This document shows positions 102 to 55,842 of a stretch of DNA of 64,000 nt, one piece after another. Numbering within the stretch: position 1 is the first letter of the stretch; the number at the start of each line of letters is the position of its first letter. The position numbers and the translations under genes are program-made. The notes beneath the pieces were generated by a model. The model searched no databases and was not told the origin of the DNA. It saw nothing but the letters and a program-made list of their open reading frames with translations. Origin of the DNA: an uncultured Acidobacteriota bacterium. GTDB taxonomy: Bacteria > Acidobacteriota > Thermoanaerobaculia > Multivoradales > UBA5704. Location of the stretch: the NCBI GenBank assembly GCA_963770895.1, contig CAVYRF010000002.1, positions 1,888,001-1,952,000 of the forward strand, written 5' to 3'.

Positions 102-234
102 GTATTCCGCTTCAGAGCTTCAGACGCCGGAATTAGCAAACGCGCGGGCATGGCGCTCGACCGCTGTCGAGAATGTACTCGGCGGCCGGCGCCTGACCGT
201 CCGCAGGTTTCTCACTGACTTGCCGGAGGTGGCA

Positions 235-3200
235 ATGCGGCACGTGGTTCGAGCGCCCGTGCGGTTCCGTTTCGGTACATCGAGTGCGGCCCGAGCCGGC
301 ATAAGGCTCGTTTTCGCAGCATGCTTCCTCGCAGCTCTGGCCACCACCATGCTGGCCGCCCAGGCCGTGACGCTTCAGGCGAGCGCGGACACCACTCTTA
401 AGCAGGGCAGTCCTGACAAGAGCTTTGGCAGTGAGACGACCCTGACTATCAAGGAAGGCGGCAGCCGCGTTCCCCTCCAGTTCGACGGAGGCGCCATCGC
501 TGCGGCGGTGGGCGGCGGCAGCCTGGCCTCGGCAGCACTTCAAGTCTACGTGGGCGCCAACGCGGGGAATTGGGGTACCACCGGCCGCACCGTGGACATC
601 TATCAGCTCACAACCGCGTGGACGGAAGCCGGAGCGACCTGGAACTGCGCCGCCGATCCGAACCCTGGGCATGCCGGTGTCGGCTGTACGAGTCCCTGGT
701 CCGGCGGCACCCCCGCACAGGGCGCCAACGGCGCGAGCGGAGACGGCGAGGCGACCGACACGGCGCTCATCACGAACGGCACAAGCGGCTGGGTAACGTT
801 CGACGTGACCTCGGATGTCGCGGCGTTTCTCACCGGCACGGCCAATAACGGATGGCTTCTCCAGAAGACGGACGAGGGCCAGGCGGGCCAGATCGATCTC
901 GTCTCGCGGGAGGGAACGGCGGGCCTCGGCCCGAGGCTTGTCCTGGTCAGCCAAAGCGCCACCTCCGATACGGTGCCGCCGTCCCTCGCCATCGTGTCGC
1001 CGTCAGAGCCGGTCTTAGTGAACGTGCCCGCACCAGCGGTCGGCCTCGCCTATCAGGACCCCGGCTCGGGCGTCGACACCTCGACACTTCGAGTCGCAAT
1101 CGACGGTCAGGATTTCACCTCGGGATGCAGCATCGGAGCGCAGGCGGCGAGTTGTCAGGCACCAGTGCTGGCCGCCGGCGTGCACACCATCATGGCGAGC
1201 GTGAGCGATCATGCGGGCAACGTTGCCACGGCCACGACGAACTTCCAGCTACTCCTCGGTCCCGGCATCTCAAGCCTCACTCTCCCAGTGAGTGCCGACA
1301 CCTTCATCACCGCCACGAGCCCCGACCGTGAGCACGGGCGCGCCGCAGTGCTGCGGGTCGAAAAGAGCGGCCCGAGCCGGGCACTGGTCGGGTTCGCCCC
1401 GGGAAGCCTCGCGGCCGCGGTAGCCGGCAACCAGGTGCTTGCGGCCCAGCTTCAGCTCGGAGTCGCCGCGAATGCCAAGAATTGGGGAGCGGCCGGGCGC
1501 ACCATCGGCGCCTACCGGTTGACCACCGCATGGTCCGAGGCGGCGGCGACCTGGGACTGCCCCGCCGACACCAACTTGGACAATGCCGTGCCCGACTGTG
1601 CGGCTCCGTGGAGCGGCGGCTCCTTCGTGGCCGCACCGACTGCAACGGCGCTCATCACGCGGCAGACGACGGGCAGCGTAAGCTTCGATGTGACCGCTGA
1701 CGTGACTGCCTTCTTCGCCGGAACTGCGACCGACGGTTGGCTGATTGCCAAGACCGGCGAAGGGCTTGCGGGGCGGATCGACTTCACCTCGCGGGAGGCG
1801 AGCTCAGGCCAGGCGGCGCAGCTTATCGTCGAGGTGCAGGTTCCGTCGGGCGGTACCACACCGCCGGTGCCCTTGCCCTCCGTTGTGCTCACCCTTCCTG
1901 TCGATGGCGCGGTGGTCAGTCAGCCAACAATAACCGCTACTGGCACGGTAGTCTGCACCAAGCCTCTTGCCAGCGTAACCGTCAACGGTCAGCCGGTGAG
2001 TTTGGCGGGCAACGCTTTCTCCGTGCCGGTAAGCTTGGGCGCCGGCCCGAACGTGGTCCTGGTGCTGGCTACCGATGTCGACGGCAATGTAGGGACTGCC
2101 TCCGCTGGGGTAACACTCGATACCACTCCTCCGATCGTCACGATTCTCCAGCCGCTGGCGGGGGCGCTAATCAATTCCGCGAGCGCATTGGTCCAAGGGC
2201 AGGTGAGCGACGACACCGGAGTCGCCAGCCTTAGCGTCGCCGGCACACCGGTCACGGTCAACAGCGAAGGTAGCTTCCAGGCGCAGGTTGCACTGAACGA
2301 AGGCAACAATTTGATTCCGTTCGAGGCCACCGACGTTGCGGGCAACAAGACGGACCAGGCCCTCAATGTCATCCGCTTCTCGCTGCCGCAGGTCGCGATC
2401 ACCTCGCCGCCCGATCTCAGTTATATTGCCGCCACCACCGTCGCCGTTTCAGGCACGGTCAGTGATCCGGCAGCAACCGTCTCCGTCAACGGCCAGCCAG
2501 CCCAGGTGAGCGGCGGCTCGTTCATGGCACCGGGTGTGCCGCTTCTCGAAGGCGGCAACGTGCTCACCGCCACTACCACCGATTCCAACGGCCATGTGAA
2601 CACTGCCACCATCAATGTGGTTCGCGACCTGACGGCACCCGTCCTGTCGATCGCCTATCCGCAAGACGGTGCCACGGTGTTCAGCCCGACACTCACGGTT
2701 TCCGGGCTCGTAAACGACATCGTCGCGGGGACGGTGAATGCCTCCCAGGTCACGGTGACTGTCAACGGCCAGCCTGCGGCGGTGGCGAACCGTTCCTTCT
2801 CCGCCACACTCTCCCTGATCGCCGGTGAGAACCTGCTTACGGTACGGGCGACGGATGTGAGCGGCAACACTTCGCAGGCCACGGTCACCGTGCAGTTAAA
2901 GCCTGCAACGGTGCCGCGGGTGACGCTCGTCGCCGGCGCCGGCCAGTCGGCACCAATCGGTACGCTTCTCGGCTCTCCTCTCGTGGCGGCGCTGCTGGAT
3001 GGGAACGGGCAGCCGGTGGCGGGACAGAGCCTCTATTTCCGAGTGCGCGGCAACGATGGCACGCTCAACGGCGGACAGCGCGGCGTGACCATGACCACGA
3101 ATGCATCAGGGCAGGCGACCGTTAACTTCACGCTCGGCAGGCACGCCGGCACCGGCAACCAGGTGGTCGAGGCGTTTGCCCCCGGTTTCCAAGGTCCAGC

Positions 3201-4892: not shown

Positions 4893-5717
4893 ATGTTTGC
4901 CTTGACCTTCTCGATCATAGCTCTGGCGACAACCCCTTCAGCAGCGCCGTTAGGCGATCCTGCAAGGCAGGTTTGGTGCACGGCCGCGGCCGAGCAGACG
5001 GCGGTGACGGTGAATGAGCCGATCTGGATGCGCTTGGAATGCGAAAACCGCGGCACGACCGAAGCCTCCTTGGATTTTTTCACTGGTAGCGGCGTTGGCT
5101 GGCGGGTTGTTCCGAACGACGGCACGATCGGGTGCTTCACCAAAGATGATGCGCAAAATGTGCCGCCCAATCGGGTGGCGCTTGCGCCCGGCGATCACGC
5201 TGCCGTGCGCGTGCTGCTGAACCGTTGGACCGGCAGGTTGCAAGCGGGAATGTACCGGACCCGGCTGGTCAGCTGCGCTGGGGCCTATACGATTGACGCG
5301 AAGGGAGGGCAGGACCTGAGTGACGAGGTCACGGTCACAGTCGGCCCTCTCGACGAAAAGCGTCTCGAAAAAGCATGCAAGGATTTGACGAGCCAAGCTC
5401 TCAATCCTGCCGCCGCCGAAAGTGCCAGGCTCCAGGCTGCCGAGGGGCTTTCTTGGATCAATCACCCGCTTGCCGTGCCGTATCTTCAAGAGGTCATGTT
5501 GAAGGGTAGGACGGCCGAGCACCTCGCCGTGCAGGGGCTCAGCCGTATACGAACTCCGGAGGCGGTGCGGGTCCTGGTCGATGCGTTCGACCGAGACACC
5601 TTCTTAGCCATCGAGGTCCGCAACGCACTGTTCAAGATGCATCCTATAGGACTGGACGCAGACCTGCAGAAGCGTGTCACCAACATTTTGAACCATGAGT
5701 TCAAGGTGGCGCAATGA
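4893..5717 (+). CDS. Exported protein with N-terminal beta domain and C-terminal HEAT-like repeats (candidate partner or immunity protein)
   Basis: ATG at 4893 after GAGGA, 14 nt after the previous stop; signal-like N-terminus MFALTFSIIALA; HEAT-like 'RLQAAEGLSWI..PLAVPYL' and 'AVQGLSRI.TPEAVRVL'; ATGA overlap with the next gene. Confidence 0.7.
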   Translation: MFALTFSIIALATTPSAAPLGDPARQVWCTAAAEQTAVTVNEPIWMRLECENRGTTEASLDFFTGSGVGWRVVPNDGTIGCFTKDDAQNVPPNRVALAPGDHAAVRVLLNRWTGRLQAGMYRTRLVSCAGAYTIDAKGGQDLSDEVTVTVGPLDEKRLEKACKDLTSQALNPAAAESARLQAAEGLSWINHPLAVPYLQEVMLKGRTAEHLAVQGLSRIRTPEAVRVLVDAFDRDTFLAIEVRNALFKMHPIGLDADLQKRVTNILNHEFKVAQ

Positions 5718-8700
5718 AAGGGCGCTCGCGACGGTGGATCATCCTCGCGGCATTGACTAGCTCTTTCGCGGCTGTGCCAGCAAACGCGCAGCTCGACAAC
5801 ACCTGCATGGTGAGCGCTCTCAACCGCACAGCCCTGGTGGATGATAGCGGCACCTGGCTGCTTGCAAACGTCCCTGCCGACCTGGGACCCTTGCGCATTC
5901 GCGCCACCTGCGTAGCTCCCGATGGCACCGTGCGCTCTGGCGCCTCTGTGAGTCTCTACACGCTGTCGGCGAACGGTACCGTGAGCGTCAAGGACATCTT
6001 ATTTGCAAGTCCGCCGGCGGTGCCCGAGTCTCTTGGGCTCTCATCGCCAGTGAGCAGCTTCGCATCTCGGGGGCAGACGGCGCAGCTCACGGTGATCGCG
6101 AGCAATCCAGATGGCACCACAACCGATGTTTCTGCCGCAGGGCTCGGTACCGACTACCGAACGAGCAATCCGGCCATCGCCACCGTCGACTCCGACGGTG
6201 TGGTCACAGCGCTGGCCAGCGGCAACATCATCATCAGCGCTACCAACGAAGGGTCGCTGGCGGTCCTCCAGCTTCAGGTGGTCCTCTCCGGCAGCACGGT
6301 GGGAGACGGCATCCCGGACGACTGGAAAATCGCCCATGGCCTTAACCCCAATGATCCTCTGGTCGCCTACGAGGACCCCGACAACGACGGACTGACCAAT
6401 CTGGAGGAGTACCAGAACGGCACCGATCCGAACAATCCCGACACGGATGGCGACGGGCTGTCGGACGGCGACGAGGTGCACCTCTATCACACGAACCCGC
6501 TCCTATGGGACACGGACGGGGACGGGATCTCGGACGGGGTCGAGGTGCGGACAGGCAGCGATCCGCTCGACATGCACAGCTTCAACCTGGCGGCGGCGCT
6601 CTCTTCGATCACGGTCTCTCCGGCCGCGTTCACCTTGGTTTTCAATACGGTGAGCGGCCAGGCGTCGCGGCAGCTCGTCGCCACAGGCAACGTCGTCGAC
6701 GGCCGCACCATCGACCTCTTCAATCCGCTCTACCAGACCCAGGTCGCATCGAGCAACCTCGCGGTCGCGAGCTTCGGAGTGCAAGCAGGGCAGGTGTTCG
6801 CTGGGCAGAGCGGCACGGCGACGGTCACGGTGAGCAACGGCGGCTGGTCGGCCGCGTCCACCGTGACGGTGACGACGTTCTCGCCCACGGCCCTGGCTTT
6901 CCTGCCGCTTCCTGGATTTCAGAATGCGGTGGAGGCGGCAGGCGACTTCGTGTTCGTGGCCTCCGGCGGCTTCGGACTGTCGGTTGTGGATGTGACGAAC
7001 CTGCGAGCGCCGGTGCTCGTCGCTCAGGCGCCCACTCCGGGGAGTGCGAACGACGTGCGGGTTTCTGGCACGGTGGCGTATGTGGCCGAGGATGTCGGCC
7101 TGCAACTCATGGACGTGAGCGATCCGGCCCACCCGGCGCGGCTCGGCAGCCTGAGCCTCCCCGACGGCGACCAAGTGCGTCTGGCGGTAGCCGGCAACCT
7201 GGTCTACCTCGCCGACATGAACTTCGGCCTCCGCGTGGTGGATGTGACGAACCCCATGCAACCGGTCGAGGTCGGCTCGCTCGCGCTCGGAGGCACGCCG
7301 CGGTCGGTCGGTCTTGGCGGCACCGGGCTCGGCGGGTTCGCTCTCACCGGATCGTATGCGGTGGTCGCTTGCGGCGATGGGGGCGTGGCGGTGGTGGACG
7401 TGAGCGATCCGACGGCGCCGGCCCTCGTGGGCGCCACGCCGGACGATGCACCGCGCGCCGGCAGCGTCACGGTGCGCGGCCACTACGCCTACGTGGCCGC
7501 CGGCGAGGAGGCGGTCTACGGCGGCCTGCACGTCGTGGAGCTTGCCGACCCGACGAACCCCGTGGAAGTGGGGGCGAGCGAGGACGACCTCGGGGTGACC
7601 CGTGCGGTGCTCCAAGACGGGTTTGCCTTGGGCGCGCAGTTCTTTCTCGCCGCGCAGGTGGCGATCTTCGATGTTAGCGCCGTGCCTCCGGCCTATACGG
7701 CCGTGCTCGACCTCACGACCTTGCCCGGCGGCGAGGCGGTCGTCGCGCCGCGTGCCAATGACATCGCGGTGCGCAACGGCGCGGTCTTCCTGGCGGCCAA
7801 CGGCGAGCAGCTCGGCGAGTTCGCGAGCTATGCGATCGAGCAGGGCGGTCTCTACACGGGCCTCTTCGAGCTGCCGAACGACGGTGACACGACTCCTCCG
7901 ACCGTGGCCCTCTCCGCGCCGACGGCCGGGTCCTCGGTGATGGAGCGGCTGCCCGTGACGGTGACCATGGCGGCACAGGATGAGGTCTCGGTCACCTCCG
8001 TCGGCATCCTGGTGAATGGCGCCCTGGTCGAAACCCTCTACAAGCCGCCGTACCAGGGGACCGTCCACGTGCCGGCCGGGCAGCCGACCATGACGCTTGG
8101 AGCGGTGGCGACAAACATCAGCGGCGTCCAGGCGACGACCACGGAGACGCTCACCGTCCAGCCGTATCCCTTGCCCGTCGCGACGCTCCTTGCGCCCGTG
8201 CCCGGCCAGGTTTTAATCGACGGCACGCCGCTCACGATCGCGGTTGCGGCGAGCGACGCCGTGGCGGTCACGCGGGTCGAGGTCTATGTGAACGGCGCTC
8301 TCGTCGGCACGGCCTTGACGCCGCCGTACCTCTTTCAGGTCACGCTGCCGCGCGGCTCGGCGACGCTCGCGGCGACGGCGTTCGCATACAACGCTCTGGG
8401 GCCGGGCGCGATGTCGGCGCCGGTCGCGGTGACGGTCCAGCCGGACGTGCCGCCCACGGTTGCGATCTTCTCGCCGGCCGACGGCGCGCAGGTGACCGAG
8501 GGAAGCGTGGTCTCGATCGTCGCAGGCGCGAGCGACCTGACCGGAATCGCAAGCGTGCTCTTTGACCTCAACGGCGTCGAGTTCCAGGGCACCGCCACCG
8601 CACCCTACGTTGCCCAGGTCGTGGCGCCGCCGGCGGGCCAGACCATGGTGCTCGATGTCGTCGCGACCGATGCCGTGAACCTGGCGGCGCAGTCAGCACC

Positions 8701-9730
8701 GGCCACCATCACGAGCGTGGTCGATCCGGGAACGGCCGTGAGCGGCACGGTGCTCGATCCGACCGGCGCCCCGGTCTCGGGAGCGAGCATCGTCGTGGTC
8801 GCGGGCGCTTCCTCGGCGAACGCCACCTCCGCTGCGGACGGGTCGTTTACAGTGAGCGGCCTGCCGACCGGGAGCGGCACCTTCGAGGTGAGCGCGGTCG
8901 CCACGGTGGGCGGCTGCCAGGCGGAGGCCGATGCCGAAGTGCCGCCGCCCCCGCCGGGCCGCAATGAATCGCTCGGCAACCTGACGCTCGTCCGGCCTCC
9001 GGCACCGGAGCCCACGGCCGTGACCGGCGTCGTTGTCGGCGCCGACGGCCAGGGGCTCTCCGGCGTCACGGTGACGGTATCGAGCGTCGACCTGGCGGAC
9101 ACCGCCACCGTCCTGAGCGGTCCCGGCGGCGCCTTCCTGGTGCCGGCCTTCCCCGCGCGGGCCTGGACCCTCCAGGCCGAAGCGACGGCCGTGAGCGGCG
9201 GTGTTCTGCTCTCCGCCGCAAGCGGCCTGCATGGCCCGCACGCGGTCGCGGGCGGCACGACGGACCTTGGCACCCTGACCTTGAGCCCCTATCCCTTCAC
9301 CGGTCCCGATCCCTTGACGACGGTCACCGGCCAGGCCACGAACCTCGACGGCTCACCGGCCGCCGGCGCCCAGGTGGTGATCGACGTAGGTGACGGCCAG
9401 ATCGTCGCGATCTCCGCCTCCGACGGAAGCTTCGCCGTTTCCGGCGTGCCCACCCTGCAAGGCGCGCTGAAGATCACCGCCTCGCTCCACCTGCCGTGCA
9501 ACGTGCTCCTGGTTGCCGGCCCCATGACGGTGAGCGAGCTTGTGGCCGGCGGCCAGACCGCCGCGGGTCTCCCGCAGCTCGTGCCCGACCCAGGGCCGCC
9601 GCCGCCGATCATCTTCGCGATGGCGCCGGTCGAAGGGTGGCCCGGGGAGGGGGAGCGGTGCGTAGCCGCTCCGAGCGCCGCCGACGGATGGCTTGCGACG
9701 CTCACGAGCGCGGCGGAGTTCCTGCGTTGA
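5714..9730 (+). CDS. Giant secreted protein: Big_2 Ig domains, Ca-binding DxDxDG (thrombospondin type-3-like) repeats, LVIVD repeats, Ig-like and carboxypeptidase-regulatory-like domains
   Basis: Signal peptide ending ANA; 'DPDNDGL', 'DTDGDGL', 'DTDGDGI'; 'GLSVVDVTN', 'GLRVVDVTNP', 'GVAVVDVSDP'; 'VSGTVLDPTGAPVSGA' type repeats. Confidence 0.85.
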   Translation: MKGRSRRWIILAALTSSFAAVPANAQLDNTCMVSALNRTALVDDSGTWLLANVPADLGPLRIRATCVAPDGTVRSGASVSLYTLSANGTVSVKDILFASPPAVPESLGLSSPVSSFASRGQTAQLTVIASNPDGTTTDVSAAGLGTDYRTSNPAIATVDSDGVVTALASGNIIISATNEGSLAVLQLQVVLSGSTVGDGIPDDWKIAHGLNPNDPLVAYEDPDNDGLTNLEEYQNGTDPNNPDTDGDGLSDGDEVHLYHTNPLLWDTDGDGISDGVEVRTGSDPLDMHSFNLAAALSSITVSPAAFTLVFNTVSGQASRQLVATGNVVDGRTIDLFNPLYQTQVASSNLAVASFGVQAGQVFAGQSGTATVTVSNGGWSAASTVTVTTFSPTALAFLPLPGFQNAVEAAGDFVFVASGGFGLSVVDVTNLRAPVLVAQAPTPGSANDVRVSGTVAYVAEDVGLQLMDVSDPAHPARLGSLSLPDGDQVRLAVAGNLVYLADMNFGLRVVDVTNPMQPVEVGSLALGGTPRSVGLGGTGLGGFALTGSYAVVACGDGGVAVVDVSDPTAPALVGATPDDAPRAGSVTVRGHYAYVAAGEEAVYGGLHVVELADPTNPVEVGASEDDLGVTRAVLQDGFALGAQFFLAAQVAIFDVSAVPPAYTAVLDLTTLPGGEAVVAPRANDIAVRNGAVFLAANGEQLGEFASYAIEQGGLYTGLFELPNDGDTTPPTVALSAPTAGSSVMERLPVTVTMAAQDEVSVTSVGILVNGALVETLYKPPYQGTVHVPAGQPTMTLGAVATNISGVQATTTETLTVQPYPLPVATLLAPVPGQVLIDGTPLTIAVAASDAVAVTRVEVYVNGALVGTALTPPYLFQVTLPRGSATLAATAFAYNALGPGAMSAPVAVTVQPDVPPTVAIFSPADGAQVTEGSVVSIVAGASDLTGIASVLFDLNGVEFQGTATAPYVAQVVAPPAGQTMVLDVVATDAVNLAAQSAPATITSVVDPGTAVSGTVLDPTGAPVSGASIVVVAGASSANATSAADGSFTVSGLPTGSGTFEVSAVATVGGCQAEADAEVPPPPPGRNESLGNLTLVRPPAPEPTAVTGVVVGADGQGLSGVTVTVSSVDLADTATVLSGPGGAFLVPAFPARAWTLQAEATAVSGGVLLSAASGLHGPHAVAGGTTDLGTLTLSPYPFTGPDPLTTVTGQATNLDGSPAAGAQVVIDVGDGQIVAISASDGSFAVSGVPTLQGALKITASLHLPCNVLLVAGPMTVSELVAGGQTAAGLPQLVPDPGPPPPIIFAMAPVEGWPGEGERCVAAPSAADGWLATLTSAAEFLR

Positions 9731-9765
9731 CCTCCGGGGATGGAGGGCCGCCGCCGAGCTTACCT

Positions 9766-11349
9766 ATGGGCATCAGCCGGCGGCGCTTGCTCGAAGGCAC
9801 CGCCGCGCTCACGGGCCTCATCGTGGCGCACGGGGCTGGTGCGAGCCCGGTCGATCGAGCGCCCGGCGGCGGCGCCAGGGAATCGGCGCGCGCCGCCGCA
9901 GCACGGCTCGAGGCGGAGCTGCCAGAGCCCACCCACGCCACAAACGGCGACGAAACCGCGCTGCCAGGCTGGATCGCCTGCTATTCCAAGGGACTGCCTC
10001 ACAATGCGGAAGGCGAGGTGGACCCAGCGGCCTATCGGCTGCTCCTGCGGGCGATCGCAAGCCGCGACCCGGCCGACTTCGAGTCCATCCCGCTCGGTGG
10101 CTTCGTGAAGCTCGCGAACCCCCAGGCCGCCCTGGCCGAGAACCTCATCGGCCCCGATCCGGGCCGCCTCGATCTCGTCCCTCCGCCGCGCTTTGCGAGC
10201 GCCGAGCAAGCATCCGAGCTCATCGAGCTTTACTGGCAGGCGCTCCTGCGCGACGTGGCCTTCGAGGACTACGAAACCCACCCCTTGGCTCAGCGGGCGG
10301 CGGCGGACCTGTCGCGCCTGGCCGATTTCAAGGGACCGCGGGCGGCGGGCGGCGCGGTCACGCCGCGCACGCTCTTCCGCGGCGCCGGTGCGGGTTCTTT
10401 GACCGGCCCCTACCTCTCGCAGTTCCTCTACCGCGACGTCTTCCTGCCACCGGTGTGGGTGAAGCAACAGGAGCGCACGGCCGCCGCCGGCATCGACTTC
10501 ATGACCCGGCACGACACGTGGCTCGATTGCCAGAACGGCGCCCTGACCGGGGTGAACCGCTTCGACCCGCACCCGCGCTTCGTCCGCAACGGCCGCGATC
10601 TCGGCGAATGGGTGCACCGCGACTTCACCTACCAGGCGGCGCTCGACGCCTGCCTGGTGCTCCAGAAGCTCGGCGCGCCCCCGAGCGGCGCCAACCCCTA
10701 CAAGCACTCGCGCACCCAGACCGGCTTTGCCACCTTCGGCGCGCCCTACCTCTTCTACCTGCTCGCCGTGGTCACGCAGGTGGCGCTCACCGCCTCCTGG
10801 TATCAGAAGTGGTGCGTGCACCGCAGGCTGCGCCCGGAGGAGTTCGCCGGCAGGGTGGAGATGGTCCGCGCCGGCCGCGCCGCCTACCCGATCGCGCCGG
10901 CGGTTTTGGACAGCGAAGCGCTGGCCGAAACGCTCCGGCGCCACGGCGCGGCGCTCCTGCCGCAGGCGTACCCGGAGGGCGCGCCCACGCACCCCTCCTA
11001 CCCGGCCGCGCATGCGGTGATCGCCGGCGCCGGCGTCACCGTGCTGAAGGCTCTCTTCGACGATTCGCACGAGTTGCCGAATTCCGTGGTCGCCGCCCCC
11101 GATGGCCTCAGCCTCACGCCCTACGCCGGGCCACCTCTTACCGTCGGCGGCGAGCTCGACAAGCTCGCCTGGAACGTTGGCATGGGACGCGATTTCGCCG
11201 GCATCCACTGGCGCTCCGACGTGGCGGCCGGGATCGAGTTTGGCGAACGGGCCGCGGTCGCGGTATTGCGTGAGATGAAGCTCACCGGACACGAGGTCTT
11301 CGCCGGGTTCACCCTGCGGCAATTCGACGGCCGGCGCGTGGCGATCTGA
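9766..11349 (+). CDS. Tat-exported vanadium-dependent haloperoxidase (bromoperoxidase-like)
   Basis: MGISRRRLL twin-arginine signal; vanadate-site motifs WYQKWCVHRRLRPE, HPSYPAAH, GRDFAGIHWRSD; 'ELIELYWQALLRDVAF' typical of the algal/cyanobacterial-type family. Confidence 0.9.
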   Translation: MGISRRRLLEGTAALTGLIVAHGAGASPVDRAPGGGARESARAAAARLEAELPEPTHATNGDETALPGWIACYSKGLPHNAEGEVDPAAYRLLLRAIASRDPADFESIPLGGFVKLANPQAALAENLIGPDPGRLDLVPPPRFASAEQASELIELYWQALLRDVAFEDYETHPLAQRAAADLSRLADFKGPRAAGGAVTPRTLFRGAGAGSLTGPYLSQFLYRDVFLPPVWVKQQERTAAAGIDFMTRHDTWLDCQNGALTGVNRFDPHPRFVRNGRDLGEWVHRDFTYQAALDACLVLQKLGAPPSGANPYKHSRTQTGFATFGAPYLFYLLAVVTQVALTASWYQKWCVHRRLRPEEFAGRVEMVRAGRAAYPIAPAVLDSEALAETLRRHGAALLPQAYPEGAPTHPSYPAAHAVIAGAGVTVLKALFDDSHELPNSVVAAPDGLSLTPYAGPPLTVGGELDKLAWNVGMGRDFAGIHWRSDVAAGIEFGERAAVAVLREMKLTGHEVFAGFTLRQFDGRRVAI

Positions 11350-11911: not shown

Positions 11912-13426
11912 TCAGGGTGCAGGGACCCCAAGATGGGGTGAGCGACCGAGGAGTCGCAGCGCTGCGCGCGCTTGCTCGACCGTGGCCGCCTCCTTACGGG
12001 CCGCGTCCAGGAAGAGCCGCAAGCTCACCAGGGTTTCGCGCTCGATCCCCGCAGCGGCTAGGACCCAGCTCATTTCCGCTGCCAAGCGGCGCACTTCGTT
12101 GAGGCGCCCTTCCTCCAGGTTGAGGATGGCCAGCTCAAGCGACACGATCGCCCTGGCAAGGCTATTCCGGTGCGCCGCAAGCTGGTTGCGCACCTCCTCG
12201 AAGGCAGCGCATGCTTCCTCGCGGCGTCCGCAGCCTGCAGCCACGCGTCCGCTCAGCCACCTGACGCGAACCAGATCGAGGTCGTTCCCGTGGTCGAGAG
12301 CCACCTGGTGGAGGCGAGACAGCTTGGCCTCGACCTCGGCATGTAGGCCCAGGTGGCACAGGTTGACGCAAAGGTTGAAGTCCAGCGACCAGGCAAGATG
12401 AGGCTCGCCGCCGTTCGCGATCAGCGGCGCAGCTTCGCGCAGGACCTCGACGGCGGCGGCCGCGTCTCCGGTCTGCTCCAGCATAACGGCGCGGCTAAGG
12501 AGGATCCGGCCTACCGCAATGGGCGGCGCCAACGTTGCGGCGCGGTCCAGCAGGTCGAAGGCCGCCTCGAACTGGCGCGCGTCGCGCCGCAGCGAGGCTT
12601 CCAGATCGAGCAGGCGCCACTCTTCGAGAAGACCGCTGCTTTCCTTCGCGCCCTCGCGCCACAACCGCCAGACGGCTGCAAACTCCGCCCCTGCTCCCGC
12701 AAGGTCGCCTGCCACGCGCCGCGCATTGCCGACAAACGCCCGCGCGTAGGCCAGCAGCCTTCGACGCCAATGCTCGTCAACCGGAGCGAGCTCTGCCACC
12801 AAAAGGGCGAGGTGGGCCAGGTCGAGGGCTGCCGCTGGCGTCTTCAGGGCTGCCCGCGCGCTCTCATCGCACAGCCGCTCTGCCAGCGCCCAGGTCTGGA
12901 ACTCGCTCCCCTGCTCGACCAGCCAGCGGCGCTCGGCGGCAGCGCAAGGGGCGAGCCTGTCCCAGGCGCGCGCCGCGTCCTCGCGGTCGCGTGGCGACGG
13001 CTCCTTGCGGTGCATCGCCGCGACCTGTGCAGCCTCTGCGGAGCCGGTGAGCGCCTCGAAGCGGGCAAAGGCCGTAGCGATGGCGCCGCGGACGGCGGCC
13101 TCCAGAGCTGGCTGGTCTTCCGGTTCAAGGTCATCGCCGGGTTGAAGGTGGTCCAGCGGCGGGCGGCCATCCGGCGCGGCGGTGGCTTTCTCGCGGGCGG
13201 CGCGCAGGATGGGCAGCAGTCGGCGCTCGACCCATGGGATGGGTAGGCCCACGGCAGCCGTGATCCGCTCCAGGGCGTCCGGGGTCAGGGTGTCGCCCGC
13301 CTCGTATCGTGACACCGAGTTCTGCGAAAGGCCGGCCGCCCTTGCAAGGTTTGTCTGATCCCAGCCGCGCAAGGCGCGCAGCACCTGCACCAGCAGCCGT
13401 CCTTCCTCGTCTCGATAGGGGGGCAT
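11912..13426 (-). CDS. XRE-HTH plus TPR-like helical repeat transcriptional regulator (paralog A)
   Basis: ATG at 13426 preceded by GAGGAGG; HTH 'LRALRGWDQTNLARAAGLSQNSVSRYEAG'; helical repeats 'TWALAERL', 'GNARRVAGDL', 'EWRLLDLEASLRRD', 'SLELAILNLEEG'. Confidence 0.85.
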   Translation of the reverse strand: MPPYRDEEGRLLVQVLRALRGWDQTNLARAAGLSQNSVSRYEAGDTLTPDALERITAAVGLPIPWVERRLLPILRAAREKATAAPDGRPPLDHLQPGDDLEPEDQPALEAAVRGAIATAFARFEALTGSAEAAQVAAMHRKEPSPRDREDAARAWDRLAPCAAAERRWLVEQGSEFQTWALAERLCDESARAALKTPAAALDLAHLALLVAELAPVDEHWRRRLLAYARAFVGNARRVAGDLAGAGAEFAAVWRLWREGAKESSGLLEEWRLLDLEASLRRDARQFEAAFDLLDRAATLAPPIAVGRILLSRAVMLEQTGDAAAAVEVLREAAPLIANGGEPHLAWSLDFNLCVNLCHLGLHAEVEAKLSRLHQVALDHGNDLDLVRVRWLSGRVAAGCGRREEACAAFEEVRNQLAAHRNSLARAIVSLELAILNLEEGRLNEVRRLAAEMSWVLAAAGIERETLVSLRLFLDAARKEAATVEQARAALRLLGRSPHLGVPAP

Positions 13427-13570
13427 GGCGTCGCCTCCTCGGCGGTATAGGGTCCTATTCACGGAAAAAGTGTATTTTTAACCTCTATCATCGACCGGGA
13501 TCGTCATGGAGCAGGCCCCGCTCGCGCCACTTCCGGCCGCGAGCGGCGGTGCCACAGGAAAGGACTTCTC

Positions 13571-13996
13571 ATGTGCTACAGGAACTCCCGTCGCATTCTC
13601 GCCTCCGCGGTCGTACTTGCCCTGGCTGTGTGGGCGGGCGCGCCCACCTTGCTGACAGCTGCCCCAGCTTCCGCCTTCGGCCTCCCGGCGGCCCAGAGCG
13701 CTCAAGGTCTCGACGTTCTGAACCAGGTGCGCCTCTGGCTGAGCACCAGATGGCCTTGGACGGGGTCCAGCGCCGATGGTGCTGCATCGCGACATGCCGC
13801 TAGCGTGAAGCCGCAGAATTCTTGCTCGTCTGACCCGAACGGCCAGCATTGCACCAATGCCGTCATCCCGCAGAACGCCTGCGCGTCGGATCCGAGCGGC
13901 CAGCATTGCACCAACGCCCTCATCCCGCAGAACTCCTGCGCGTCCGACCCGGACGGCCTGCAATGCAGCAATGCTGTCAGGCCACATCATTCTTGA
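13571..13996 (+). CDS. Small exported precursor peptide with three tandem Cys-x8-Cys 'DPxG' cassettes
   Basis: AGGAAAGGA RBS; basic then hydrophobic N-terminus with A-x-A sites; cassettes VKPQNSCSSDPNGQHCTNA, VIPQNACASDPSGQHCTNA, LIPQNSCASDPDGLQCSNA; divergent from paralog A. Confidence 0.8.
   Translation: MCYRNSRRILASAVVLALAVWAGAPTLLTAAPASAFGLPAAQSAQGLDVLNQVRLWLSTRWPWTGSSADGAASRHAASVKPQNSCSSDPNGQHCTNAVIPQNACASDPSGQHCTNALIPQNSCASDPDGLQCSNAVRPHHS
13805..13975 (+). repeat. Three imperfect 57-bp coding tandem repeats
   Basis: CCGCAGAA recurs at 13811, 13868 and 13925 (period 57); many differences are at third codon positions. Confidence 0.9.
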
Positions 13997-14133
13997 GGCT
14001 CGGACCCGAGCGGCAGTCAGCGGTGCCCGGATTAGCTGAAGCAGCATGCGAGTGCGGCGCATAGGGTCTGACGCAGCGCCCTGACGGTGAACGCGTCCCT
14101 TGTGGCAGCCATCCTCGATTCCTCGCCGCACCA

Positions 14134-14158
14134 GCCGGAGCCCGGTTGCGGCTCCGGC
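14134..14158. terminator. Hairpin between the convergent peptide and regulator genes
   Basis: GCCGGAGCC, 7-nt loop, GGCTCCGGC; no U tract. Confidence 0.35.
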
Positions 14159-14173
14159 GCCTCGGCTGGTCTC

Positions 14174-16030
14174 TCACGGTACGCGCCCCCAAAGGCGCGG
14201 TGATCGACCGAGGAGACGCAGCGCCGCGCGTGCCTGGTCGATCGTCGCCACCTCGCGGCGCGCAGCCTCGCAAAAGAGCCGCAGGCTCGCCAGGACTTCG
14301 CGCTCGACGCCCTCGGCGGCGACGATCCAGCTCATCTCCTTCGCCAGGCGGCGAACCTCGGCGAGCTGCCCGTCCTCCAAGCAGAGGACGGCGAGCTCAA
14401 GCGACACGATCGCAGAGGCAAAACCGTTGCGATGGGTCGCAAGCTGCTCCCGCACTCGCTCGAAGGCGGCACGTGCCTCCTGCCTGTCACCCATGCCCCC
14501 CGCGACACGGCCGCTCAGCCAGCCGATACGCACAAGATCCAACTCGTTGCCGAGATCGAGCGTTAGCCGCTTCAGGCCCGGCAGCTGAGCCGCCGCCTCG
14601 GCGAATTGACCGAGGTGGCAGAGATTGACGCTCCAATTGAATGCCAGCGACCATTCCAACGCTGGCTCGCCGAGTGCGCGCACCAGGGGTGCGGCCTTTT
14701 GCAGCGTGACCAATGCGGCAGTCGCCTCACCTGCCTGCTCCAAAGTGACGGCGCGCTTGAGCAGTATGCGCCCAGCGGCGATCGGCGGAGCCCCGGCCAT
14801 GGCCCGGTCGAGGAGGTCGAGAGCTGCTGCGAAGCTCCGCGTATCGCGGCGCAAGGATGCCTCCAGATCGAGCAGGCGCCATTCGGGAAGGATGGCGGTC
14901 GGGTCTCCGGTGGCACCTTCGCTCCAGAGCCGCCAGACAGACTGCCACTCGGCGCCGGCCTGTGCCAGGTGGCCCTCGACGCGTAGTGCATTGGCCAGAA
15001 ATGCTCGGGTAAAGCCTTCCAGCCGGCTGCGCCATGCGTCCGAGCCGGTGATTATCCGCGCCGCGGCGCTTGCAAGCCGCGCCAGCTCCAGCGCCATGGC
15101 AGCGCTTCTGCGCGCGCAACGCGCGCTCTTTTCGGCCAGCCGCTCGGCGAGTGCCCAGGTTCGATACTCCAGGCTGTGCCCGACAAGCAGCCGGCGCTCC
15201 TGGGATGTGCTCCGCTCCAGCCGCTGCCACAACCTGCCGGCCTCGGCGCGAGCGCGGGCAATACGGTGGGTGGCGGCCTGGGCGCGGATGCAGGACTGCG
15301 TGAGGATGGCGACCTCGGTCGCCAAGTGGGCCGCAGCCTCCCGCCCACGGCAGGCTTGCAGCGGTGCGGTGGCTCCGGCGACGGCACTGCCGTTCACACC
15401 TGGACGAGCAAGGCCGAGGGCCGCGATGGCGGCGAGCGCAAGATCGGCTTCGGCCGGGGTGTAGTCCATTGCACCCACCAGGCCCTCGAACCGCGCGCGC
15501 TTCAGCTTGCGACTGCCGCGCTCATAACCCGAGATTTGGGAGTTTGGCACACCGGCCGCCTCTGCCAGGTCCTGTTGGGTCCAGGCCAAGCGCTGGCGTA
15601 ACCAGCTGAGGGCGATCCCTAGCGCCTGCGACGGGCGGGCCAGCGCGTCCTGGCCGGGCGCGCGGCGGGCCTGGAACAAGGGTTGGGCCAAGCCGGCGAC
15701 CTCAACCGCGAGATGCGCCGCGGTCTGGCGGAGGTAGCGGACTTCCAGCGGCGGCGCGGCGGCTGGATGGGACGGTTCGCAGGCTTCGGCTTCACGGCCG
15801 ACCGCGACCACGACCATGTGTACGAGGTCGACTTCGGAGGGAGTGTAGCCCATGATCTCGGCGAGCTGCCGGAGGCGCCGGCAACTGAGCTGACGGGTGC
15901 CCCGCTCGTAGGCCGAGGAGTGGGCCTTGGAAATGCCAGCGGCCTTTGCCAGCTGCCGCTGCGTCCATCCGGCGTGCTCGCGTAGCCAGGTCAGGACGAT
16001 GCAACGGGACTGCGGGGGAGTCCTAGTCAT
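14174..16030 (-). CDS. Double XRE-HTH plus TPR-like regulator (paralog B)
   Basis: Two HTH units 'WLREHAGWTQRQLAKAAG..AYERG' and 'WLRQRLAWTQQDLAEAAG..GYERG'; C-terminal half closely parallels paralog A (EWRLLDLEASLRRD, LDLVRIGWLSGRVAGG, LRLLGRSP). Confidence 0.85.
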   Translation of the reverse strand: MTRTPPQSRCIVLTWLREHAGWTQRQLAKAAGISKAHSSAYERGTRQLSCRRLRQLAEIMGYTPSEVDLVHMVVVAVGREAEACEPSHPAAAPPLEVRYLRQTAAHLAVEVAGLAQPLFQARRAPGQDALARPSQALGIALSWLRQRLAWTQQDLAEAAGVPNSQISGYERGSRKLKRARFEGLVGAMDYTPAEADLALAAIAALGLARPGVNGSAVAGATAPLQACRGREAAAHLATEVAILTQSCIRAQAATHRIARARAEAGRLWQRLERSTSQERRLLVGHSLEYRTWALAERLAEKSARCARRSAAMALELARLASAAARIITGSDAWRSRLEGFTRAFLANALRVEGHLAQAGAEWQSVWRLWSEGATGDPTAILPEWRLLDLEASLRRDTRSFAAALDLLDRAMAGAPPIAAGRILLKRAVTLEQAGEATAALVTLQKAAPLVRALGEPALEWSLAFNWSVNLCHLGQFAEAAAQLPGLKRLTLDLGNELDLVRIGWLSGRVAGGMGDRQEARAAFERVREQLATHRNGFASAIVSLELAVLCLEDGQLAEVRRLAKEMSWIVAAEGVEREVLASLRLFCEAARREVATIDQARAALRLLGRSPRLWGRVP

Positions 16031-16507: not shown

Positions 16508-17134
16508 ATGCGCGACCATGATCCACGAAACGAATGCGCCGGCCACGTCGAAATCGACCTCATGGCGCGGCTGCTGACCGCTCACGCGCAGGACGAGGAC
16601 GTCTACCAACGCTTGCTGCCGCACATGGTCGGCCAGTGTCCCGAGTGCAGGCAGCTCCTTGTCGAGTTGGAAGAGCTGCGCCGTGAAGCGGCGGCGCCGG
16701 ATGCCCTGATTGCCGCGACCGAGTGGCCGGCGGCACCCGGCCTGTGGGGGCGGCTGGCGCCGCTCCCCTTCGAGGAACAGCTGCGGGCAGCCGCTGCGGA
16801 CGAAACCCTTCACACCTGGGGGCTCTGCCGCCTGCTCCAGGTCAAGAGCGGCGGCGAGGCGCGCGAGCATCCGGCGGCGGCCGGCCGGCTTGCCCAGCTG
16901 GCCTTGGTGATCTCCGAGCACCTGGCCAAGGCGCAGGAGACCGCGGAGCTGGCCAAGGAGCTGAGGGCCATGCCGCGGGTGGACCGCCTGCATGCTGCCG
17001 CCCCAGCGCGCCCTGACCGACCGTCTGCTGAAGCACCACGGCGAGTTCGAAGACCCGATCGGTGCCGCACGCGCATGAGCGAGGAGCTGCACTTCCGCCG
17101 CGGCCAGATGGTGCTGAGCGATGGGCGCTCCTGA
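16508..17134 (+). pseudogene. Truncated anti-sigma-type Zn-finger plus TPR-like protein (paralog C)
   Basis: 'HMVGQCPEC' H-x4-CxxC finger; 'LWGRLAPL...LHTWGLCRLL...AGRLAQLALVIS' matches the first helical block of paralogs A, B and D, after which similarity stops; may still be a short functional gene. Confidence 0.55.
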
Positions 17135-19214
17135 ATCCGTATCAGGCGACGCCTGTCCCGCCAACGGCGCTACGCCCACGCCCAACCACGCAGGCAAGGG
17201 ACGTCATCGCGAGCGGCCCGGTGCTGCCCAGGGCTTAGTGGCGCAGGCACTGACGCGCCGCCATCGCCCACCGTTGGGCCTTGCGCTTTCGACCTTGCGG
17301 GCCATTATGGGATGGTCGCAAACGGCTCTTTCCAAGGCCAGCGGCGTCGCCACCAGCCAGATCTCGCAATACGAAAGTGGCGCAATACGCTTGACTCGCG
17401 CTCGCTTCAACGAATTCGGCGCGGTCATGGGTGCCAGGGAGGGACTTGGCGAGTGCGCAGTCGCGACCTGCGCGCTGTTGGCTGCCGTAGCTGCCCCGGC
17501 GGGCTCAGTGCCGCCAGGCGATCTGACCCATGACGAGCGGCAGCAAGTCGACGCGTTCGTATTAAACATGTTGCCTGCGTTGGCGGAACTTGTTCAGGAG
17601 CACGCCACCGCAACGATCATGATGCGGCGCGTCGACGTAGCGCAGCAGGAAGCTGAAGCACATTGGCACGCGCTGGCGACGCTCTCCCATCAGCAGCGGC
17701 GCCAACGATTGGAAACCGGTTTGCATCTACAAACCTGGGCCATGTGCCTACGCCTGTGCGACGCGAGCGTTGCCGCCGGCGCGCACGGCGCCGCAGAAGC
17801 CATGCAGCTTGCTGAGCTGGCCGTGCGCGCAGCGCAACTGGCGCGGGGTGACGCTGGCTGGCTGTTGCGCTTGCACGGCTACGCGCGCGGATTCCTTGCC
17901 AATGCGTTTCGGTTGAGAGGGGATCTTGCGGCGGCCGATGCAGAGTTCGCTGCGGCAACGCGCCAGTGGGAGGACGGGCATCAGCCCGCGGAATTCGCGC
18001 TGCCGGAATGGCGATTCCTCGACCTGGAATCGTCCCTCCGCCTTGCGCAAAGAAATGGGCCTGCCACAGTGACCCTGCTCGACCGAGCCATCGCCCTTGC
18101 TCCCGCAGGGCAAACTGGCCGGTTGCTGGTCAAGAAAGCGACGGCCTTACGGCTCGCCGGCCAGGTCGACGCTGCGCTCGTTGCATTGGACGCGGCGGCG
18201 CCCCTGGTCAAGTTGCGGCCAGACGTGCAGTGGATGGTGCAGTATCACCAGGTAGCGTGTTTGTGCCAGATCGGGCGCTACCGAGAGGCCGACGAGTGCC
18301 TGGAGAACGTGGGTGGTGCGCTTGTCGGTGAGTCGACTTTGGACATCCTCCGGCGAATGTGGCTCACGGCACGTGTGACCGCAGGTCAGGGCGATCCGCG
18401 ACAAGCGATCGCCGATCTGGAATGGGCGCATACGGAGCGCATGCAGTTCGCCGGTCGCTATGAGTTGGTCCTGGTGTCGATCGAGCTGGCGATTCTCTAT
18501 CTTGACGAAAGGGTGGGGGACTCGGAAAAGATTCATCGCTTGGTTCAAGATGCCTTGGAAATCGTCCAATCTCGATGGAGCTCGCGAGGCCTGACCACCA
18601 GCCTTGGCGACTTAAGTCAGTCAGCTGGGAAGCTACGTCAGCTTCACGAAGCCGTGGAGCTTCTGAGGGTGGAAAATTGGGTCTTCGAGCCCTTGACGGC
18701 GGGCGGTAGCCAGCGCATGGCGCACATCCCCCTTCTGGAACAGGCCGATACGGTTTCGATTCCCGACGAAATGAGCGTCCTGGTGCGCTTGGTGCGCGCA
18801 ATCCCTGGAATGAGCCAGGAGGGGATGGGCACCGCAGCGTCGATCGACCGCACTACGATCAGCCGCTACGAGACGGGCGACATGATTCCCTCGCGGGTGC
18901 ATCTCGGGCGCCTTGCCTCTGCTGCTGGTATCTCACTCCCGCTGTTGGAGGGTGTGCTGCTGCCGATGGTCCGCGTTGTGTGTGCCAGGAGGGCCTGTTT
19001 GCACAGACCCTGGTTGCTGGCGCAGCAAGCTGGTGAGGTGGCTGCTGCGTTCGATCGGCAATTGGTTGCCACCATGCGCGCAGCCGTCGCCACGTTTGCA
19101 GCGACTCTTCGGTGTCGTCCTGCTGTGGCTGCTCAACCTTGCCGGCCATCGGATGTACCGCCGTGCGACGCACAGCAGGCGCCGGCGCAAGGCGCGGGCG
19201 AGATGGCCAGATGA
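17121..19214 (+). CDS. XRE-HTH plus TPR-like plus second C-terminal HTH regulator (paralog D)
   Basis: HTH 'LRAIMGWSQTALSKASG..SQYESG'; 'QTWAMCLRLCDAS', 'EWRFLDLESSLR', 'SIELAILYLDE'; second HTH 'GMSQEGMGTAASIDRTTISRYETG'; start uncertain. Confidence 0.75.
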   Translation: MGAPESVSGDACPANGATPTPNHAGKGRHRERPGAAQGLVAQALTRRHRPPLGLALSTLRAIMGWSQTALSKASGVATSQISQYESGAIRLTRARFNEFGAVMGAREGLGECAVATCALLAAVAAPAGSVPPGDLTHDERQQVDAFVLNMLPALAELVQEHATATIMMRRVDVAQQEAEAHWHALATLSHQQRRQRLETGLHLQTWAMCLRLCDASVAAGAHGAAEAMQLAELAVRAAQLARGDAGWLLRLHGYARGFLANAFRLRGDLAAADAEFAAATRQWEDGHQPAEFALPEWRFLDLESSLRLAQRNGPATVTLLDRAIALAPAGQTGRLLVKKATALRLAGQVDAALVALDAAAPLVKLRPDVQWMVQYHQVACLCQIGRYREADECLENVGGALVGESTLDILRRMWLTARVTAGQGDPRQAIADLEWAHTERMQFAGRYELVLVSIELAILYLDERVGDSEKIHRLVQDALEIVQSRWSSRGLTTSLGDLSQSAGKLRQLHEAVELLRVENWVFEPLTAGGSQRMAHIPLLEQADTVSIPDEMSVLVRLVRAIPGMSQEGMGTAASIDRTTISRYETGDMIPSRVHLGRLASAAGISLPLLEGVLLPMVRVVCARRACLHRPWLLAQQAGEVAAAFDRQLVATMRAAVATFAATLRCRPAVAAQPCRPSDVPPCDAQQAPAQGAGEMAR

Positions 19215-55825: not shown

Positions 55826-55842
55826 CGGTCCCTCGCCGCGGG

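Follow-up and report, generated by a model that had tools for sequence, protein, structure and literature searches.

A repeated cysteine-loop precursor gene paired with XRE-type regulators in Thermoanaerobaculia: a possible propeptide-receptor module

Organization of the locus

The DNA under study, hereafter the window, is a stretch of 64,000 nucleotides from an uncultured Acidobacteriota bacterium of the class Thermoanaerobaculia (assembly GCA_963770895.1, contig CAVYRF010000002.1, positions 1,888,001 to 1,952,000 of the forward strand). It contains a small gene, designated here the precursor, whose product carries three copies of a short loop bracketed by cysteines, and which lies between two genes for regulators with a helix-turn-helix (HTH) of the XRE type and tetratricopeptide repeats (TPR). 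The main elements are as follows, with positions counted from the first letter of the window; ORF stands for open reading frame and HMM for hidden Markov model.

13571..13996, + strand: precursor gene, ATG start, 141 residues, TGA stop
13571..13675, + strand: signal-peptide-like N-terminus, residues 1–35, basic n-region with RR, hydrophobic core, A-S-A before F36
13703..13759, + strand: conserved Trp-rich amphipathic helix LDVLNQVRLWLSTRWPW, between signal peptide and cassette 1
13811..13979, + strand: 57-bp tandem repeat, 3.0 copies, coding for 19-residue units (Tandem Repeats Finder)
13823..13852, + strand: cassette 1, CSSDPNGQHC, residues 85–94, loop C85–C94
13880..13909, + strand: cassette 2, CASDPSGQHC, residues 104–113, loop C104–C113
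13937..13966, + strand: cassette 3, CASDPDGLQC, residues 123–132, loop C123–C132
14174..16030, − strand: regulator B, 618 residues, two XRE-type HTH (Pfam HTH_3 twice) and a C-terminal TPR-like domain, matched by the regulator HMM over residues 135–613
11912..13462, − strand: regulator A, 516 residues by the longest ORF (504 in the database form P0001), divergent from the precursor

The precursor gene is preceded by a candidate ribosome-binding site (AAGGA, 13560–13564, 6 nt 5' of the ATG), and its product starts with the n-region RNSRR, followed by a hydrophobic stretch of around 20 residues and by A-S-A at residues 33–35, after which, and ahead of F36, the signal peptide would be cleaved. 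A spacer, the helix and a second spacer then lead to the three 19-residue units, which conform to PQN-x-C-x-S-D-P-x-G-x-x-C-T/S-N-A-x-x and correspond to the only array that Tandem Repeats Finder detects in the precursor (82% matches, no indels, score 233). The linkers read TNAVIPQNA and TNALIPQNS, and the tail SNAVRPHHS. An earlier note on this DNA had described the ORF with its coordinates, three 19-residue cassettes and DPxG loops, in agreement with both the translation and the repeat analysis. A strict loop pattern, C x1-3 [DE]P [NDSGH] G x0-3 C, occurs three times in the six-frame translation of the window, always within the precursor ORF.

Conservation was analysed in alignment A4, which comprises 70 sequences, namely the window protein, 17 of the 18 relatives from an HMMER scan and 52 of the 67 precursors recovered from related loci (see below), P0134 and the locus genes with uncertain starts having been left out. 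In cassette 1, residues C85, D88, P89, G91 and C94 are nearly invariant; in cassette 3, P127 and G129 are invariant, and C123, D126 and C132 nearly so. Residue W56 of the Trp-rich helix is nearly invariant in alignment A3. The AlphaFold2 (AF2) model obtained from the 70-sequence alignment contains two helices only, one at residues 2–23 and the other at residues 45–60, a block with a predicted local distance difference test (pLDDT) of about 81, and the cassette region is devoid of regular secondary structure (pLDDT 47–66). The mean pLDDT is 63.7 and the predicted template modelling score (pTM) 0.26; the model speaks, weakly, against a compact domain.

The precursor has no match in Pfam, NCBIfam, PHROGs or PADLOC; its profile reached at best E 0.59 against PDB sequences, neither the protein nor the profile matching a solved protein at E<0.5, and a promoter and terminator scan of positions 13300–14300 gave no match. 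The exact 141-residue sequence is absent from a collection of 15 billion proteins, which means either that the gene was uncalled or that it was called with a different start. Gene prediction from codon-position GC failed in this region, taking the antisense frame of the precursor and overlooking a third regulator gene of the window, D (see below); stop-to-stop segments were used instead.

The precursor family

Among the 230 candidates from a word-index search with the single precursor protein, not one reached E≤10. A full HMMER scan of 1.84 billion representatives, unrestricted in length, evidenced 18 relatives at E≤1e-3 (6 at E≤1e-10, 1 at E≤1e-30), which have 112–172 residues, a common layout and a best identity of 57%. 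A search with a profile built from alignment A4, of the kind that the earlier note had called for, found 592 clusters at E≤1e-3 among 8000 candidates scored; in the 120 clusters listed, every function name is "hypothetical protein" and every named taxon Thermoanaerobaculia. Matches in a protein atlas were to unnamed Acidobacteriota clusters only, with scores of 0.86–0.88, below the evidence level of the tool. The precursor ORF is a real gene, and its family is large and unannotated.

We have pooled 194 distinct proteins (P0121–P0258, the locus genes with an ATG start and the window protein), with a median length of 119 residues (range 84–183, some relatives being shorter than 100), and obtained the following distributions.

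Cassettes per protein (n = 194): none in 1; one in 5; two in 66; three in 82; four in 37; five in 3
Loop length, Cys to Cys: 9 residues in 452 of 546 cassettes; 10 residues, the form of the window, in 39 of 546
Residues C-terminal to the last cassette: median 2; five or fewer in 172 of 193 proteins
Signal-peptide-like N-terminus: 189 of 194 proteins, by a simple rule of our own
Trp-rich motif of the W..L...W type ahead of the first cassette: 166 of 194 proteins
RR pair in the n-region: 147 of 193 proteins, commonly S-[FLI]-R-R-[KT]
Canonical twin-arginine translocation (Tat) pattern: 5 of 193 proteins

Two to five cassettes are thus present in 188 of the 194 proteins. The usual unit is [D/K/E]-x-G-C-x-[I/L]-D-P-[N/D/S]-G-x-C: of 436 cassettes, 427 have G at position −1 relative to the first Cys and 404 have D, K or E at position −3. 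The flanks are [D/K/E]-x-G-C in most relatives and PQNxC...CTNAxI in the window protein. In the subfamily of the latter the Cys residues are preceded by P-Q-x-x and followed by T/S-N, and the linkers are conserved as C-[TS]-N-x-[VL]-x-P-[QK]. In the n-region of the window precursor the twin arginine (S-R-R) is at 13586–13594; the hydrophobic cores of the family signals look Sec-like.

The residue identities within and between proteins were compared using 436 nine-residue cassettes from 156 proteins, leaving out the window protein, which has 10-residue loops. The DP-x-G residue, which differs in every copy of the window protein and had been singled out in the earlier note, is identical in 0.36 of the pairs within a protein and in 0.28 of those between proteins, whereas for the residue after the first Cys the fractions are 0.46 and 0.15. 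It is the latter position that is particular to each protein, and it is also the most diverse of the cassette (H, N, R, G, I, M, Y, Q and others); a residue specific to each protein at this position is the pattern that would be expected of a private signal.

Three model names were considered for the family, DUF6799, Defensin_5 (copsin) and NF033413, and rejected, as their matches are sporadic or below threshold in a few homologues. DUF6799 (PF20606) matches the homologue P0131 over two cassettes (E 2e-7, 31.1 bits against a cut-off of 26.8) and is a precomputed domain in one of the 120 listed clusters; the window protein and 10 of the 11 homologues scanned give no match to it. DUF6799 is itself of unknown function, and the match to P0131 may rest on D-G spacing alone.

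Linkage between precursor and regulator genes

Of 8000 candidates scored, 557 are related to regulator A at E≤1e-3, the named ones being Thermoanaerobaculia; most comprise 485–530 residues, and many carry precomputed TPR_12, TPR_16 or MalT-like TPR domains. Alignment A2 was built from 34 of the 120 listed regulators, and with it 64 loci were retrieved from GTDB species genomes, all of them Thermoanaerobaculia or Acidobacteriota metagenome-assembled genomes, with 36–61% identity. In the six-frame translation of these loci (656 kb) the cassette pattern marks 76 segments, of which 65 have at least two cassettes, and after filtering 67 precursor genes remained. The pairing with a regulator is strict: 65 of the 67 precursors have an opposite-strand XRE-HTH/TPR regulator ending at most 400 bp from their 3' end. 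In 38 cases there is also a second regulator, diverging from the 5' end, and tandem arrays of regulator-precursor pairs occur.

The window has the same layout, read on its minus strand as B, convergent precursor and A; the precursor is separated from B by 177 bp and from A by 108 bp, or by 144 bp if the database start of A is taken. Since B converges with the precursor, as do the regulators of 65 of the 67 genes, B is taken as the partner regulator, and A fills the position of the second regulator in the common three-gene layout. In many loci the third gene of the module is a short regulator paralogue of about 255–310 residues, divergent from the precursor, which matches positions 3–270 of the regulator profile only, a segment comprising the HTH and the beginning of the helical domain; in the window the full-length paralogue A occupies its place. 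Examples, identified with the regulator profile, are the following.

Locus L007, 7821–8759, + strand: short regulator paralogue
Locus L015, 7907–8743, + strand: short regulator paralogue
Locus L055, 7969–8805, + strand: short regulator paralogue

The regulator-precursor module is self-contained. An all-against-all clustering of the six-frame segments evidenced no other independent gene family in more than 10 of the 64 loci; the next-largest clusters, in 31 and 11 loci, correspond to other-frame segments inside the regulator gene, as judged from their listed members alone. Next in frequency are a histidine kinase/response-regulator (10 loci), two unnamed families (9 and 5), a Ser/Thr kinase-TPR protein (4) and an ATP-binding cassette (ABC) ATPase (4), and the 64 loci show no conservation of a protease, maturase or transporter within 6 kb.

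What is conserved is the pairing of one regulator with one precursor, irrespective of how many cassettes the latter has. The suggestion that each cassette serves one receptor paralogue finds no correlate in the 35 of the 64 loci with at least 12.5 kb, in which the numbers of regulators and cassettes are unrelated (Spearman 0.005, p 0.98; in the 28 of them with a single precursor, rho −0.30, p 0.12). In addition, P0122, which has 55% identity to the window precursor and two cassettes, apparently lies on the same contig as P0002 (70% identity to A) and P0017 (69% to B), and its locus is probably the orthologue of the window locus with one cassette fewer. The source genome apparently contains at least four further regulator paralogues (P0003, P0007, P0008, P0009) and the precursor P0121, and so holds more modules. 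Two further ORFs of the window belong to its regulator region and are given for context only.

17121..19214, + strand: regulator D, 697 residues, paralogue with two HTH, the first N-terminal and the second close to the C-terminus
16508..17134, + strand: ORF of 208 residues, aligning with the start of the C-terminal domain of the regulators, without HTH

Regulators A, B and D are paralogues with a long helical C-terminal domain in each (identity to A, 54% for B and 33% for D). D has no precursor of its own in the window, where the three cassettes are all in one ORF. The 208-residue ORF has no Pfam family and is not found by the regulator HMM at E≤1e-5; near its N-terminus, where the regulators have their HTH, lies an H-x3-C-x2-C motif (HMVGQCPEC), which we take to be of the kind seen in zinc-binding anti-sigma factors.

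Fold of the regulators

The AF2 model of regulator A, computed on alignment A2 (pLDDT 86.2, pTM 0.70), shows an N-terminal HTH, two long helices and, at residues 147–494, a regular array of helix-turn-helix units which forms a TPR superhelix. In a Foldseek comparison with the PDB all 40 matches at E≤0.001 are TPR proteins, including LGN/Pins with partner peptides, TTC7B and Tom71, as well as peptide-bound Rap proteins: RapJ-PhrC (4gyo, template modelling (TM) score by target 0.65), RapF-PhrF (4i9c, 0.62, root mean square deviation 4.8) and the phage phi3T Rap with its pheromone (8rst, 0.63). At the level of family models no TPR family is found by Pfam in A, B or D at E≤0.01, and no RNPP, Rgg, ComR or AimR model of Pfam, NCBIfam or PHROGs matches the regulators. 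In view of the lack of homology to any RRNPP subfamily, the module is not a member of that family, and the resemblance is one of fold only.

RRNPP_detector, according to PMC10075063, looks for a propeptide of 10–100 residues with a secretion signal, directly adjacent to a TPR receptor of about 250–500 residues. In the present case adjacency and TPR are found and a secretion signal is plausible. The precursor exceeds the length given for propeptides, and B (618 residues, with its duplicated HTH) and D (697) exceed that given for receptors; A has 504–516 residues.

A decayed fourth cassette

The stop codon of the precursor lies at the start of a further element.

13994..14035, + strand: decayed fourth cassette, with TGA in place of the first Cys codon, then in-frame GSDPSGSQRC, PD and a stop at 14033–14035

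The partial fourth linker NAVRP, recognised in the earlier note, is indeed present and turns out to be more than a linker, as a whole cassette follows the TGA (13994–13996) in the DNA and read-through would give GSDPSGSQRC-PD-stop. Since the TGA replaces the first Cys codon of this cassette, the segment SNAVRP is read as the start of a unit truncated by a nonsense change; the closest relative, the paralogue P0121, has four intact cassettes and ends in ...CSHS. Decoding of the TGA as selenocysteine, which would give four cassettes with a selenylsulfide closure in the last, was considered, as the TGA stands exactly at the Cys position and is followed in frame by an otherwise complete cassette with the short tail typical of the family before the next stop. 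This possibility is judged very improbable: among the cassettes of the window and of the 64 loci, no other has a stop where a Cys is expected while its neighbours are intact, which is why we read it as decay, a single base change converts TGC to TGA, and the linker ahead of it has also drifted (PHHS instead of PQNS). Furthermore, an Rfam scan of the window, selenocysteine insertion sequence (SECIS) elements included, gave nothing at threshold, and the small hairpin 3' of the TGA arises from the SDPS codons themselves.

Leader hairpin and upstream sites

The 5' leader of the precursor contains a stem-loop in the window, and hairpins are found at the corresponding place in related loci.

13504..13559, + strand: stem-loop in the precursor leader, perfect 9-bp inverted repeat CCGCTCGCG / CGCGAGCGG, 13518–13526 with 13538–13546
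Locus L037, 7745–7814, − strand: leader hairpin
Locus L040, 9635–9704, − strand: leader hairpin

The window stem-loop has a minimum free energy of −30.5 kcal/mol (z −1.0 relative to shuffles) and its ribosome-binding site is outside the stem. Most relatives have a hairpin of about 60 nt directly 5' of the start codon, with the ribosome-binding site at its base; CUCUCC and the Shine-Dalgarno GGGAG are paired there with a UUUCC tract lying further upstream and with a GGAGAG arm. We have examined this pairing in 26 of the 53 usable leaders, chosen by eye for good alignment, with a structure of 22 pairs specified by hand from single-sequence folds: 87.4% of the cells are paired, against 41–55% when the partners are slid, and 10 of the 22 pairs show changes on both sides, values which 3–6 of 500 shuffles reach. 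RNAalifold recovers 4 pairs only from the raw alignment of 54 leaders, and a partly different structure from the 26 hand-picked sequences. By the caveats of the tool itself, the comparison of the 26 leaders lends moderate support to a conserved leader hairpin, which may serve in translational control or be a palindromic site in the DNA; Rfam recognises nothing in the window or in 8 of the loci, this hairpin included.

In nine loci a palindrome, CATA-N3-TATG, is located at a constant distance, around 80–91 bp, 5' of the precursor start, out of 12 occurrences across all 64 loci. It resembles the operators to which dimeric HTH proteins bind; the exact site is not in the window. The nine sites are as follows.

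Locus L005, 7961–7971
Locus L019, 7907–7917
Locus L034, 1714–1724
Locus L036, 7864–7874
Locus L037, 7825–7835
Locus L038, 5496–5506
Locus L039, 1254–1264
Locus L043, 5951–5961
Locus L055, 7939–7949

Interpretation and alternatives

Our best reading of these observations is that the exported pro-protein delivers several copies of one short Cys-bracketed loop peptide, for which regulator B would be the dedicated receptor and A a second, adjacent paralogue. By analogy, the module would be a self-contained propeptide-receptor system working in the manner of RRNPP quorum sensing, with 2–5 signal copies per precursor, a proposal whose probability we place somewhat short of even. In its favour are the strict linkage, the lack of another conserved neighbour, the resemblance of the regulator model to peptide-bound Rap proteins, the signal-like N-terminus and the position of the last cassette close to the C-terminus, the cassette region without compact fold, the loop residue particular to each protein, the multiplication of paralogues and the precedent of Phr pre-peptides with several signal copies. 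In such a scheme the pre-protein would be exported through its N-terminal signal, and each cassette would close outside the cytoplasm as a disulfide-bridged hairpin. Proteases would then cut the Pro-rich linkers, the last cassette needing almost no trimming given that the relatives end at a median of 2 residues past it, and peptides of about 1 kDa would accumulate and re-enter the cell. There they would bind the concave face of the TPR superhelix and alter the action of the HTH at operators, the precursor's own promoter probably among them. The earlier proposal of a multi-core ligand precursor is accordingly retained in part: the protein is of a secreted type with repeated Cys loops, has 0–5 cassettes in the family and is tied to a regulator in 65 of 67 cases, all of which would suit a protein supplying these regulators with several copies of a ligand. 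The present data establish the gene anatomy, the size of the family, the pairing, the TPR fold of the regulator and the variation in copy number, and from these the export route, disulfides, cleavage, uptake, binding and target genes are inferred.

A number of observations weigh against this reading. With respect to the regulators, the fold search gives generic eukaryotic TPR proteins scores as high as those of Rap, the HTH is all that Pfam, NCBIfam, PHROGs and PADLOC recognise, and the best 60 hits of the regulator profile among PDB sequences are generic HTH and TPR proteins, with no RRNPP chain. The linkage was measured regulator-first, the loci having been picked through the regulator, and to our knowledge a convergent gene order is unusual for RRNPP pairs. 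As for the precursor, its 141 residues (family median 119) exceed the 10–100 residues by which RRNPP propeptides are defined in PMC10075063. The likeness of cassettes within a protein could also result from recent duplication, with neighbouring genes sharing ancestry; the Trp-rich helix has no role in the model; and the outer membrane of Acidobacteria, together with the reduction of disulfides in the cytoplasm, complicates the form that would be sensed.

The main rival reading is that the protein acts without being cleaved, an effector in the periplasm or outside the cell whose autonomous, disulfide-closed hairpins are joined by flexible linkers. It could then serve as an inhibitor with several heads, as a binder or as part of the surface or matrix, with the regulator merely controlling its expression and responding to another ligand. 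Indeed, a regulator with its target gene explains the gene pairing equally well, the Trp-rich helix of 166 of the 194 proteins and the conserved residues ahead of the loop suggest constraints beyond those of a bare loop peptide, the linkers of the window subfamily are themselves conserved, and the leader hairpin embracing the ribosome-binding site in most relatives points to a tight control of the product; tandem nine-residue loops closed by disulfides are reminiscent of those of Bowman-Birk-type inhibitors. However, this view leaves unexplained why each small gene should be accompanied by a TPR regulator of around 500 residues, in tandem and with many paralogues. It also sits uneasily with an AF2 model without a compact fold, with the lack of a solved-protein match noted above and with a cassette number that shifts freely among close relatives, the window having lost one cassette and kept the gene. 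We regard an intact effector as rather unlikely, albeit a serious competitor.

The other possibility is a multi-core precursor of a ribosomally synthesized and post-translationally modified peptide (RiPP), whose cassettes would be modified and excised, in the manner of cyanobactins or through other Cys-directed chemistry, by enzymes encoded elsewhere. Repeated Cys-containing cores between conserved flanks are in line with it, and the conserved helix N-terminal to the cores could be a recognition element; an assembly-line cluster for other natural products begins 5 kb away (see below), and Thermoanaerobaculia are rich in RiPP and other biosynthetic clusters, as stated in PMC13083261. Nevertheless, the constant partner of the precursor is a transcription factor and not an enzyme, and the maturase, protease and transporter to be expected are not among the genes conserved around the 64 loci. 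In the window, as the earlier note had observed, no modifying enzyme is adjacent: the flanking genes are the XRE/TPR regulators, and a Pfam scan, which covered the ORFs of at least 250 residues, found no RiPP enzyme or maturase family. The sole RiPP model touched, NF033413, matched one homologue at E 0.42, which is noise. Finally, 189 of the 194 proteins have an N-terminus resembling a cleavable export signal, and RiPP leaders, as far as we know, do not look like export signals. The cyanobactin-style origin suggested in the earlier note is thus not borne out, and a RiPP in general appears improbable.

Taking the propeptide-receptor reading further, Thermoanaerobaculia may run a peptide pheromone system of their own, based on disulfide-cyclised loops of about nine residues in 2–5 copies, on private, tail-to-tail XRE-TPR receptors and on many pherotypes per genome, which would differ chiefly in the residue that follows the first Cys. 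Intracellular peptide sensing of the RRNPP-like kind would then occur for the first time outside Firmicutes, in cells with an outer membrane and of independent origin; in this extended form the proposal is tentative, and more doubtful than the propeptide-receptor reading from which it starts.

Genomic surroundings and significance

The other features of the window are listed below.

220–4878, 5714–9730 and 9496–11349, + strand: two very large exported-type proteins, then a PAP2-like protein (below the Pfam cut-off), upstream of the regulators
19233–43916, − strand: hybrid nonribosomal peptide synthetase-polyketide synthase (NRPS-PKS) assembly line with condensation, adenylation, carrier-protein, ketosynthase and acyltransferase domains, a MacB-type permease being next
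50156–51412, + strand: transglutaminase-core ORF, unrelated to the finding as far as seen
52914–55928, − strand: ferritin-like ORF, unrelated as far as seen
60388–61365, − strand: zeta-toxin-like/AAA_33 ORF, unrelated as far as seen
61389–62555, + strand: S41 peptidase ORF, unrelated as far as seen
62600–63925, − strand: further condensation-domain ORF at the window end

One of the large upstream proteins has CBM96, glucodextranase-B, Ig-like and CarboxypepD_reg domains, and the other LVIVD repeats, bacterial TSP3 repeats, Big_7 and CarboxypepD_reg domains; the Pfam scan also shows ABC domains. The NRPS-PKS cluster (25 kb) begins 19 bp past the end of regulator D, and it is not conserved beside the module in related loci. 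Density control of secondary metabolism by the adjoining module is a testable idea, set against the fact that related loci have no conserved link of this sort.

A cytoplasmic TPR receptor encoded beside its own propeptide is held to be a trait of Firmicutes and phages, and the RRNPP survey tool was run on Firmicutes and viruses, as PMC10075063 describes. A full-text search, which left subscription journals outside, found no literature joining RRNPP with Acidobacteria, and none describing the module under Thermoanaerobaculia quorum-sensing peptides, Acidobacteriota XRE/TPR secreted peptides or disulfide tandem-repeat precursors. At least 592 clusters in a soil and sediment phylum with few cultured members follow a similar two-gene logic with no sequence homology. 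A phylum for which no peptide signal is known may thus possess one together with its receptor, and, if this is a signalling system, peptide signalling arose independently in bacteria with two membranes; synthetic peptides of about 1 kDa and a single regulator would then provide a simple handle on the social behaviour of Acidobacteria. Should the protein work intact, it would still represent a new family of exported mini-hairpin repeats with a dedicated regulator.

Comparison with known systems

Among the systems to which the module can be compared, precursors of the cyanobactin PatE type resemble it in having several cores between conserved flanks and cyclic end products. Cyanobactins need adjacent proteases of the PatA/PatG type and have a leader, not an export signal; no such protease was found by Pfam in the window ORFs of at least 250 residues, nor any enzyme conserved around the 64 loci, and the sole peptidase seen in the window, the S41 protein, lies 47 kb from the precursor. 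Fungal alpha-factor-type precursors likewise carry tandem copies of a short signal separated by spacers, and the copies vary in number and sequence. These systems are eukaryotic, with Kex2-type sites, a membrane receptor, no disulfide loop and no linked transcription factor gene. Such fungal precursors are mentioned in PMC5199041.

The closest analogy is with RRNPP systems (Rap-Phr, NprR-NprX, PlcR-PapR, Rgg-SHP, AimR-AimP), which belong to Firmicutes and their phages. The present module differs from these in its Acidobacteriota host with two membranes, in a longer precursor (84–183 residues) with a conserved Trp-rich helix, in a repeated Cys-bracketed loop instead of a linear peptide, in its convergent genes and in the short regulator paralogue added at many loci. 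What it has in common with them, as an analogy, is a self-contained two-gene module in which a small, presumably exported pro-peptide is encoded beside a cytoplasmic receptor of the TPR type, with many paralogous modules per genome and the candidate signal at the C-terminal end of the precursor. The XRE-type HTH of the regulator is shared with PlcR, NprR and Rgg. Likewise, several signal copies per precursor are a feature of Phr systems, in which some pre-peptides carry several identical or diverged copies of the autoinducer, as reported in PMC5199041.

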